DNA of 32,000 bases from Moraxella nasovis (GTDB lineage Bacteria; Pseudomonadota; Gammaproteobacteria; Pseudomonadales; Moraxellaceae): assembly GCF_022701215.1 (NCBI RefSeq), contig NZ_CP089976.1, positions 1,680,001-1,712,000 on the forward strand. The letters are read 5' to 3'. Position numbers and translations under genes: made by a program. Of the stretch, positions 5,442 to 6,113 are shown one piece after another. The notes below the pieces were generated by a model, which saw only the letters and a list, made by a program, of their open reading frames with translations, had not been told where the DNA came from and made no database searches. Within the stretch, counting starts at the first letter, position 1. Every line of letters starts with the position of its first letter.

Positions 5442-6113
5442 GTGAGTGCAACGAAAGTAGAGTTATCTGACAAATTTAATCTCACCCTAGACCAAAACCG
5501 CTTTTTGGCTCGCAAAAATATCGTAGAAGTCATTCACAGTATTTCACGGTTAGAAAAGGTAAATACAACATTTCCCCAAACCAAAACCATCATTGATGGC
5601 ATGAGCGTGGGCGGAATTTCTACTCATGATATTCAAGTGGTGTTAAATCTTAAAAATGCGTGGCAGTTTATTTTAAAGTCAGACACGCCTTTTGATTTGG
5701 ATTTTGCTTGCAGGGTTAATGCTTTTGTTGCCTATAATGAAAGTTTAGCTTGGGGTGTTTTGCGGACTGGCAATGTCGGTATTAGTGGTGTTGGCTATGT
5801 GCCGAGCATTCCGATAAAATCAGATATTGAAAACACCCTTAATAAAATCCACAATTTGCCTTTATCCAAAACCGTGCTTATCATCAAAACGATGTATTAT
5901 ATGATGAGACAGCAGATTTTTTGGGACGGCAATAAGCGCACGGCGATTATTTGTGCGAATTATCAGCTGATTTTATCAGGGCTTGGCATTCTAAATATCA
6001 ATGAAAACCAGCTTGAAATTTGGAATAATCTATTGTCTGAGTTTTATGAAACGAATGATGATGACAAAATCATAGCTTGGACTTATGAACACTGTTTGTA
6101 TGGAATTGAATAG
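5442..6113 (+). CDS. Fic/Doc-fold protein with a degenerate active-site motif (catalytic His replaced by Gln)
   Basis: GVLRTGNVGISGVGYVPSIP matches the Fic pre-motif pattern G-x-R-x-x-V-x-I-x-G. The motif RQQIFWDGNKRTAIICANY (5913-5945) aligns to Fic/Doc HxFx(D/N)(G/A)N(G/K)R with Q at the His position. AGGTGAG RBS lies 7 nt before GTG 5442. Confidence 0.7.
   Translation: MSATKVELSDKFNLTLDQNRFLARKNIVEVIHSISRLEKVNTTFPQTKTIIDGMSVGGISTHDIQVVLNLKNAWQFILKSDTPFDLDFACRVNAFVAYNESLAWGVLRTGNVGISGVGYVPSIPIKSDIENTLNKIHNLPLSKTVLIIKTMYYMMRQQIFWDGNKRTAIICANYQLILSGLGILNINENQLEIWNNLLSEFYETNDDDKIIAWTYEHCLYGIE

Follow-up and report, generated by a model that had tools for sequence, protein, structure and literature searches.

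Introduction

The Fic/Doc fold supports several chemistries, namely AMPylation, phosphorylation, phosphocholination and deAMPylation, and to our knowledge all known activities use the histidine of the active-site motif. This His is the general base, the motif Asp binds Mg2+, and a flap acts as the target-docking hairpin. In class II Fic proteins a Glu blocks productive ATP binding and, in FICD, it also positions the water used for deAMPylation. Doc of phage P1, the toxin of a type II toxin-antitoxin (TA) module, is an EF-Tu kinase, and the Lys of its NKR motif inverts ATP, bringing the gamma-phosphate toward the catalytic position. The present analysis concerns a gene of Moraxella nasovis encoding a protein of this fold with Gln at the position of the catalytic His (Gln-Fic hereafter). 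It lies at positions 5442-6113 of a 32,000-nt stretch of contig NZ_CP089976.1 (positions 1,680,001 to 1,712,000), which is called the window, and stands between genes for an Mrr-type restriction endonuclease and a TIR-domain protein, within the interval separating carA from carB.

A clade with this substitution has been described in silico. Within the Doc subfamily, Khater & Mohanty (2015, Sci Rep 5:10804, PMC4454073) defined the clade D2, with the consensus Qx[F|Y]x[D|E][G|V]NKR. The clade comprised 45 sequences, usually single-domain and from bacteria only, and its authors considered that the selection acting on it argues against simply dead proteins (PMC4454073). Our literature search found no experimental or functional work on the Gln clade. 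Functions independent of catalysis have been reported for Bartonella BepC (HxFxKGNGRxxR) and for AvrB as cited there (PMC7842960), and neutralisation of one Fic protein by another is documented in C. fetus (PMC5651007). We consider it likely that the window gene is an intact and selected Gln-Fic of clade D2 that belongs to a mobile family, carries Gln as a family-wide trait and is autonomous from its neighbours, an estimate that covers these points and leaves the chemistry aside.

The Gln-Fic gene and its active-site loop

The gene and the segments on which the assignment depends are the following.

5442..6113, plus strand: coding sequence of the Gln-variant Fic, an intact open reading frame (ORF) of 223 aa with a GTG start, a single Fic domain and a class II-like architecture
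5553..5555, plus strand: GAA codon of E38, which by alignment corresponds to E234 of FICD, the autoinhibitory Glu in the class II Fic group
5754..5813, plus strand: flap/pre-motif region GVLRTGNVGISGVGYVPSIP (residues 105-124), which aligns to the FICD segment AGRFRTTQVLVG..HIPP
5913..5945, plus strand: active-site loop QIFWDGNKRTA, with Q158 at the catalytic His position, read directly from the sequence

Q157 and Q158 are both encoded by CAG (5910-5912 and 5913-5915, respectively), and the codons ensuing Q158 are ATT TTT TGG GAC GGC AAT AAG CGC ACG GCG. The coordinates, the Q158 codon, the loop and the pre-motif GVLRTGNVGISGVGYVPSIP had all been given by the first-pass annotation, and inspection of the sequence finds each of them as written. 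Compared with the canonical AMP-transferase motif HxFx(D/E)GNGRxxR, the window motif Q-I-F-W-D-G-N-K-R-T-A-I keeps the F, D, G, N and first R, and differs by three changes, from His to Gln, from the second Gly to Lys, and from the last Arg to Ile, so that the full motif is absent. Two further statements of that annotation stand as well, as Q158 aligns on His363 of FICD and is thus a Gln in place of the catalytic His, and the Lys at the second Gly position gives the motif its Doc-type NKR flavour. The two minus-strand ORFs that overlap the Fic gene (61 and 51 aa) are without support.

Gln is a family-wide trait

A homologue search in a 90%-clustered collection reports 653 homologues at E<=0.001. 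Among the best 120 clusters, the residue at the His position is Q in 116, K in 2, R in 1, P in 1 and H in none. A set of 80 reference-genome loci carrying the Gln-Fic family was also retrieved with 6 kb on each side (individual loci are cited below by L numbers); the Gln motif is present in 76 of the 78 ORFs recovered from them, the other two being truncated. When 1.84 billion representatives clustered at 50% identity were searched with a profile, the family amounted to 247 clusters at E<=1e-30 and 1132 clusters at E<=1e-10. Conservation was counted in an alignment of 131 sequences, made up of 130 full-length representatives from the top 150 (50% identity) and the window protein.

Q158: 124/131, with His in 2
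D162: 119/131
G163: 116/131
N164: 128/131
K165: 120/131
R166: 122/131
R108: 126/131
E38: 117/131

The flap residues G105, R108, P121 and P124 are kept in at least 114 of these representatives, and E[GN] is found at the inhibitory position in 100/131. Across the genome loci the Gln codon is CAA in 45 cases and CAG in 30, and never CAT or CAC, the one-step His codons. Pairwise dN/dS ratios between the window gene and its orthologues of Moraxella, Lonepinella and Alysiella range from 0.08 to 0.16.

Gln at the His position is a lineage-wide trait under selection. The first-pass annotation had set this reading against a recent mutation or a sequencing error, and the alignment of homologues settles the matter in its favour. 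His (CAY) and Gln (CAR) codons are indeed one third-position change apart, so that an otherwise ordinary Fic or Doc toxin gene could have acquired Gln by a recent inactivating mutation or through a sequencing error. However, Gln prevails in the near clusters, in the genome loci and in the distant representatives, His is missing from the two closer sets, and the ORF is intact and of full length. Because Gln is family-wide, both of its codons are used and dN/dS is low, the data exclude a decaying pseudogene as well as a recent mutation or a sequencing error, and we attach next to no probability to this explanation.

In a Moraxella metagenome-assembled genome (MAG; L033 6010-6677) and in Campylobacter plasmids (L086 6019-6708), Gln-Fic is broken into two ORFs, either by occasional pseudogenisation or by an assembly error.

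Fold and class of the protein

Pfam analysis assigns residues 84-176 to the Fic family PF02661 (29.3 bits for a gathering cut-off of 24, E 1.6e-6). A family profile built from 24 members and compared with the sequences of the PDB reports human FICD and C. elegans FIC-1 as hits over residues 22-198, with E values of ~2e-7 (2.2e-7 for FICD). In the FICD alignment, Q158 falls on His363 and E38 on the inhibitory Glu234. Doc returns a weak match in the same search, limited to the motif helix (3k33, E 0.25). The NCBIfam DOC_P1 model is likewise under its cut-off (18.5 bits for 38.65), and the PHROGs family of Doc-like toxins phrog_577 matches weakly (E 0.003).

The AlphaFold2 model, built from the alignment, has a mean predicted local distance difference test score (pLDDT) of 90.8 and a predicted template modelling score (pTM) of 0.89; its flap is less confident, at approximately residues 101-120 (pLDDT 58-76). 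Foldseek comparison of this model with the PDB reports FICD, C. difficile Fic (CdFic) and BT_2513, with E values down to 7.6e-8 and a template modelling (TM) score of 0.75 (FICD, E 7.6e-8 and TMq 0.75; CdFic, TMq 0.74 and TMt 0.73). The Fic assignment made by the first-pass annotation is therefore borne out by a Pfam score above cut-off, by the profile match with FICD and by the superposition of the model on class II Fic proteins, and it is far beyond chance. The window protein is a class II-like Fic scaffold combined with a Doc-type N-K-R anion hole, and is devoid of the catalytic His and of the final Arg of the motif.

Distribution and mobility

The plasmid records that contain a homologue of the Gln-Fic number 539, and they include 169 conjugative and 194 mobilizable ones. 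Their hosts include Enterococcus (149), Lactobacillaceae, Campylobacter and Piscirickettsia. Three copies from the plasmid collection were translated and all are of the Gln type. Two of them are true plasmid copies (Latilactobacillus and Ligilactobacillus) that sit among conjugation or mobilisation genes, and the third copy comes from a 2.17-Mb sequence of N. gonorrhoeae that bears the label plasmid. Other plasmid copies are found near repA, mobQ, recombinase or TA genes; in pCK401A, repA and mobQ adjoin the gene. Among PHROGs families, the window protein matches phrog_11900, of unknown function (1e-32). A phage origin was considered and rejected, as only 4 weak matches were found in 50,697 phage records and the structural matches in BFVD are generic Fic proteins.

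These records raise the question of whether the primary role of the family lies in the biology of plasmids or integrative and conjugative elements (establishment, anti-defence, or a function associated with type IV secretion systems), the chromosomal copies being remnants. The number of conjugative and mobilizable records, the Gln-type copies inside the conjugation or mobilisation clusters of the two lactobacilli, and the copy next to repA and mobQ in pCK401A all favour this idea. Against it, the surroundings of the window copy and of the other carA-carB copies are free of conjugation, relaxase and integrase genes, these copies are under strong purifying selection, and many chromosomal loci of Firmicutes lie between housekeeping genes. 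We regard a primary plasmid role as unlikely.

Several family members occur in arrangements of their own. In the representative proteins P0183 and P0200 (~338 aa, both Gln-type), an N-terminal Xre-type helix-turn-helix (HTH) domain (HTH_26/HTH_3) is fused to the Fic domain, an arrangement that, judged from its domain order, would be that of an autoregulated toxin-like module; HTH_3 genes also stand upstream of Gln-Fic in 3 loci. In two Paenisporosarcina genomes (L019 5206-5961 and L020 5232-5960), a canonical class II Fic gene (SNAIEGN, HPFIDGNGRTSR) lies 16-39 bp upstream of Gln-Fic, a tandem of His-Fic and Gln-Fic that recalls the Fic1/Fic2 pair of C. fetus. Lastly, the Acinetobacter baumannii plasmid pD4 (L095 3317-4819) encodes a 500-aa protein in which an N-terminal Zeta_toxin P-loop kinase is joined to a remote Gln-Fic-like domain at the C-terminus (motif QFTFEGEKRTA). 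This gene is preceded by a 75-aa ORF, and similar matches occur in 82 Acinetobacter plasmid records.

The carA-carB slot

In the window, Gln-Fic belongs to a same-strand array of five genes (carA, Mrr, Fic, TIR and carB) with spacers of 27, 13, 11 and 11 nt. Besides Gln-Fic, the array comprises the following genes.

3257..4462, plus strand: carA, upstream border of the slot, 64-82% identical to an L001 ORF with the Pfam domains CPSase_sm_chain and GATase
4490..5428, plus strand: type IV restriction endonuclease with Mrr_N and Mrr_cat domains (Mrr_cat 124 bits, Mrr_N 50.7 bits)
6125..6925, plus strand: TIR-domain protein of 266 aa (TIR_2 64 bits; PADLOC PDC-S66 83 bits)
6937..10164, plus strand: carB, downstream border of the slot

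Between carA and carB there is no convincing terminator-like hairpin; past carB, at 10182-10215, a strong one is present. The slot cassettes would presumably be read through from the carA promoter. Another hairpin that resembles a terminator and carries a T-run is present at 3183-3211, ~45 nt upstream of the carA start, at a site without any Rfam family; it may end transcription of the preceding gene or act as a leader attenuator for the carA operon.

The same location recurs in other genomes. In the Moraxella loci of the window, L001, L002, L003, L006, L007, L033 and L039, as well as in Lonepinella (L009 and L011) and Alysiella (L010), Gln-Fic has the orientation of carA and carB and lies either in the gap that separates them or just upstream of carB; in Moraxella L005, the slot insert runs beyond the retrieved region. 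Gln-Fic is the only credible cargo of the slot in L001 and L009, the spacers being of 6 and 18 nt in the latter (Lonepinella sp.). Other genes carried in the slot encode a LysE translocator, an ICMT-family methyltransferase, a PtuA-like ATPase accompanied by a PIN protein, or a type II methyltransferase paired with a restriction enzyme; DUF559 or PIN genes are also encountered there (window 4463-6936; L001-L003, L005-L007, L009-L011, L033, L087, L088, L090-L092). All of this cargo is encoded on the carAB strand with very short spacers. Our literature search on the carA-carB gap found nothing relevant; this gap appears to be a variable cargo slot common to Moraxellaceae, Neisseriaceae and Pasteurellaceae.

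The LysE-type translocator gene adjoins Gln-Fic in this slot, upstream of it in Alysiella (L010 5330-5998) and downstream in Lonepinella (L011 6650-7285). It may encode a basic amino-acid exporter placed inside an operon for arginine and pyrimidine precursors.

Between the window and Lonepinella or Alysiella, the Fic proteins are 69-71% identical and the CarB proteins 69%, whereas within Moraxella the values are 74-79% for Fic and 84-89% for CarB. Because Fic is as similar as CarB across families, yet diverges faster within Moraxella, these comparisons suggest that Gln-Fic may have moved between bacterial families into the same slot. Recent block transfer of the cargo together with carB was rejected, since sliding DNA identity of the window with Neisseria or M. 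caprae displays no mosaic peak at the junctions. No repeats or mosaic signal that would explain the loading of the slot were found.

Given this location, Gln-Fic might be tied to carbamoyl-phosphate synthetase, for instance as a nucleotide-sensing regulator of CarAB or of its operon. Such a tie is favoured by the tight spacing in Lonepinella sp. and by the recurrence of the gene on the same strand between carA and carB, or just upstream of carB, in 11 or more genomes from Moraxella, Lonepinella and Alysiella. However, the other 69 of the 80 genome loci and hundreds of plasmids have no carA or carB neighbour, unrelated cargo (PtuA-like ATPase and PIN, type II restriction-modification, ICMT, LysE, TIR) fills the same slot, and the GC content of the cargo is under that of carA and carB. 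We therefore hold a functional link with CarAB to be very improbable.

The Mrr and TIR neighbours

The first-pass annotation had proposed Gln-Fic as a sensor, a scaffold or an antitoxin-like regulator of the adjacent TIR or Mrr protein. The Mrr protein matches over its full length the single-gene PADLOC model mREase_IV (3e-60). In the TIR protein, the TIR domain covers residues 137-236 and accounts for the match with the PADLOC candidate PDC-S66, and residues 1-135 do not return any Pfam match. Both families were searched in the 80 loci by blastp and with hidden Markov models. The TIR family is found near Fic in 1 of them (Moraxella caprae, L002) and Mrr in 4, all from Moraxella (L002, L005, L006 and L007). 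The immediate upstream and downstream neighbours of Gln-Fic are heterogeneous across the set, and no conserved partner gene emerges, as no Pfam or PADLOC family occurs more than 3 times among the 150 non-redundant neighbours within two genes.

The TIR family is small (25 clusters, ~266 aa) and is without Fic in the 4 of 4 contexts examined. It lies directly upstream of carB in Neisseria sp. oral taxon 020 (L087 and L088) and in metagenome contigs (L090-L092). In a Pseudomonas genome it stands alone by P2-like phage genes, in a prophage-like region, and in a Campylobacterota MAG it adjoins a PLD gene, near a ThsB-type TIR gene. The TIR protein (6125-6925) is probably a single-gene defence cassette with a putative sensor domain. 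Composition separates the genes further, with GC contents of 0.44-0.48 for carA and carB, 0.33-0.38 for Mrr and Fic, and 0.25-0.28 for TIR, and so does identity with the L002 locus, which is 55% for TIR and 77-78% for Mrr and Fic.

A dead pseudo-enzyme serving as sensor, scaffold or antitoxin-like regulator in an Mrr-Fic-TIR or Fic-TIR system would fit several features of the locus. The three genes share a strand, are separated by 13 and 11 nt and are not interrupted by a terminator; their order is repeated in the Moraxella caprae locus, and in five Moraxella genomes Mrr adjoins Fic, the two overlapping by 4 bp in L005 and L007. This is nevertheless contradicted by the scarcity of TIR and of Mrr within 6 kb of Fic, where both are confined to Moraxella, by the loci in which Fic is alone between carA and carB (L001 and L009), by the TIR genes that do without Fic in Neisseria, in the metagenome contigs and in Pseudomonas, by the GC content and identity of TIR, and by the fit of Mrr with a single-gene type IV restriction model. 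We consider such a system quite improbable, and the regulatory role proposed by the first-pass annotation is not supported. Because co-occurrence is rare, neighbours are heterogeneous, TIR occurs without Fic, and GC content and identity differ, the locus is best read as Mrr, Gln-Fic and TIR being separately acquired low-GC cassettes that share one slot, Gln-Fic being autonomous and not part of a TIR or Mrr system. For annotation, the lesson is that defence-type neighbours in a hotspot need not form one system.

Proposed function of Gln-Fic

Across clusters less than 50% identical, conservation reaches ~90% or more for the Mg2+-binding Asp, for the N-K-R phosphate nest, for the flap and for the Glu. 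Because these elements are kept, Gln-Fic most likely still binds a nucleotide, in a Doc-like orientation set by the Lys, and docks a protein target, as far as sequence conservation can tell. As Gln cannot deprotonate a hydroxyl, it would not be a canonical AMPylase or kinase.

We tentatively favour, at less than even confidence, a non-canonical enzyme in which Gln158 and Glu38 would position a nucleophile rather than deprotonate it, with a toxin-like or defence-like role and a conserved target. If the nucleophile is water, the reaction would be hydrolysis or the removal of a phosphoryl or nucleotidyl group; alternatively, the acceptor might already be anionic. Gln-Fic would then act on a widely conserved target in an accessory role of the toxin or defence type. 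Put in its strongest form, this proposal is slightly more doubtful: the whole family would be catalytically active with a chemistry new to the Fic fold, Glu38 and Gln158 placing a water or an anionic acceptor on a nucleotide inverted as in Doc, so that the protein might be a hydrolase or 'eraser' of phosphoryl or nucleotidyl modifications, or an NTPase, directed at a universally conserved target. If true, plasmids and small defence islets, the carA-carB slot among them, would carry a Fic family of new chemistry.

Several points weigh against an autonomous enzyme of this type. The geometry of E38 and Q158 has a single source, the alignment with FICD. The inhibitory position of the window protein reads ISRLEK, without the S/T at -4 and the G/N at +1 of the strict motif [ST]xxxE[GN], and this strict form is itself found in only 46/131 family members. 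An autonomous cargo does not account for the repeated carA-carB location in three bacterial families, and the 4-bp overlap of Mrr and Fic in L005 and L007 leaves room for a lineage-specific partnership. As for a defence role, it is suggested by context, as the PADLOC scan of the Fic protein returns no model, the one match being QueC at chance level (E 0.031).

Gln-Fic may instead be a purely non-catalytic binder that works through protein-protein contacts alone, either a decoy or antitoxin for canonical Fic/Doc toxins or a target-recognition module. The general base is indeed absent, and precedents exist for non-enzymatic Fic proteins in BepC and AvrB (PMC7842960) and for Fic-Fic neutralisation in C. 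fetus (PMC5651007). The canonical class II Fic gene immediately upstream of Gln-Fic in the two Paenisporosarcina genomes would suit a decoy or an antitoxin, and the fusion of the QFTFEGEKRTA domain with a Zeta_toxin kinase in Acinetobacter plasmids points the same way. On the other hand, the Asp, the whole phosphate nest and a near-invariant Gln, instead of an arbitrary residue, are conserved at ~90-98% in very divergent clusters, beyond the needs of docking, and a canonical Fic neighbour occurs in just 2 of the 80 loci. Such a binder is a possibility that we hold with reservation. By analogy with BepC, a catalytically silent pseudo-enzyme that would bind both nucleotide and target is conceivable to a similarly low degree.

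With all other active-site residues under strong purifying selection and Gln fixed in hundreds of divergent clusters, the family represents either a new activity or a widespread nucleotide-binding pseudo-enzyme, and it spreads on plasmids of lactobacilli, enterococci and Campylobacter as well as in chromosomal islets.

Other features of the window

The Rfam scan of the window reports three tRNAs only. The minus-strand ORF 13625-16324, encoding LptD, contains a perfect hexanucleotide repeat (TCTGTA) of 16.2 copies at 16041-16137, with 100% identity between copies, which encodes a (Thr-Asp)n tract near the LptD N-terminus. This repeat could vary in length in frame.

Comparison with known systems

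With Doc of the Phd/Doc module of phage P1, the window protein shares the N-K-R anion hole and the absence of the final Arg of the Fic motif. It differs from Doc by the Gln that replaces His, so that HxFx(D/N)(A/G)NKR is not matched, by a score under the DOC_P1 cut-off, and by its size, 223 aa with an inhibitory-type N-terminal helix and a flap as compared with ~126 aa for Doc. No gene for a Phd-like antitoxin is present at the window locus, where the 13-nt spacer to the 312-aa Mrr leaves no room for a small ORF, and no conserved small upstream partner is found in the 80 loci among the listed ORFs of at least 70 aa.

The class II Fic proteins (FICD/HYPE, C. elegans FIC-1, C. difficile Fic and BT_2513) provide the best whole-length profile and structure matches. 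FICD Glu234, a residue with both regulatory and catalytic functions, is matched in the alignment by Glu38, and the proteins have the flap segment and the order of helices in common. The window protein departs from them in having Gln for His363 and Lys for the second Gly, in missing the final Arg, which is the partner of the inhibitory Glu, and in being devoid of TPR or extra domains; identity amounts to 12-20%.

BepC, AvrB and Fic2 of C. fetus are also Fic folds with non-canonical motifs, and their known functions are independent of AMPylation (PMC7842960, PMC5651007). However, the His is retained in BepC and Fic2, which have defined partners and act as host-targeted effectors or as TA toxins. 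In AvrB the whole motif is absent, while the window protein loses the His and the rest of its nucleotide site is strictly conserved. SoFic, a single-gene anti-phage defence system, resembles the window gene as a stand-alone Fic-domain gene among defence genes (PMC12249575). It reportedly acts by AMPylation (PMC12249575). The window protein matches no PADLOC model beyond the chance-level QueC.

The closest relatives are those of clade D2. The window motif QIFWDGNKR fits the clade consensus exactly, the protein is single-domain with 223 aa and its relatives are bacterial, membership being established on the published motif and description and not on the sequence set of the authors. The window protein is a further member of this already described, functionally uncharacterised clade, and the His-to-Gln clade is not new to the literature. 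The published clade comprised 45 sequences without context or structural analysis, whereas the family numbers here 247 clusters (50% identity, E<=1e-30) and exhibits, instead of the compact Doc fold, a class II-like Fic architecture with an inhibitory-type Glu and a flap.

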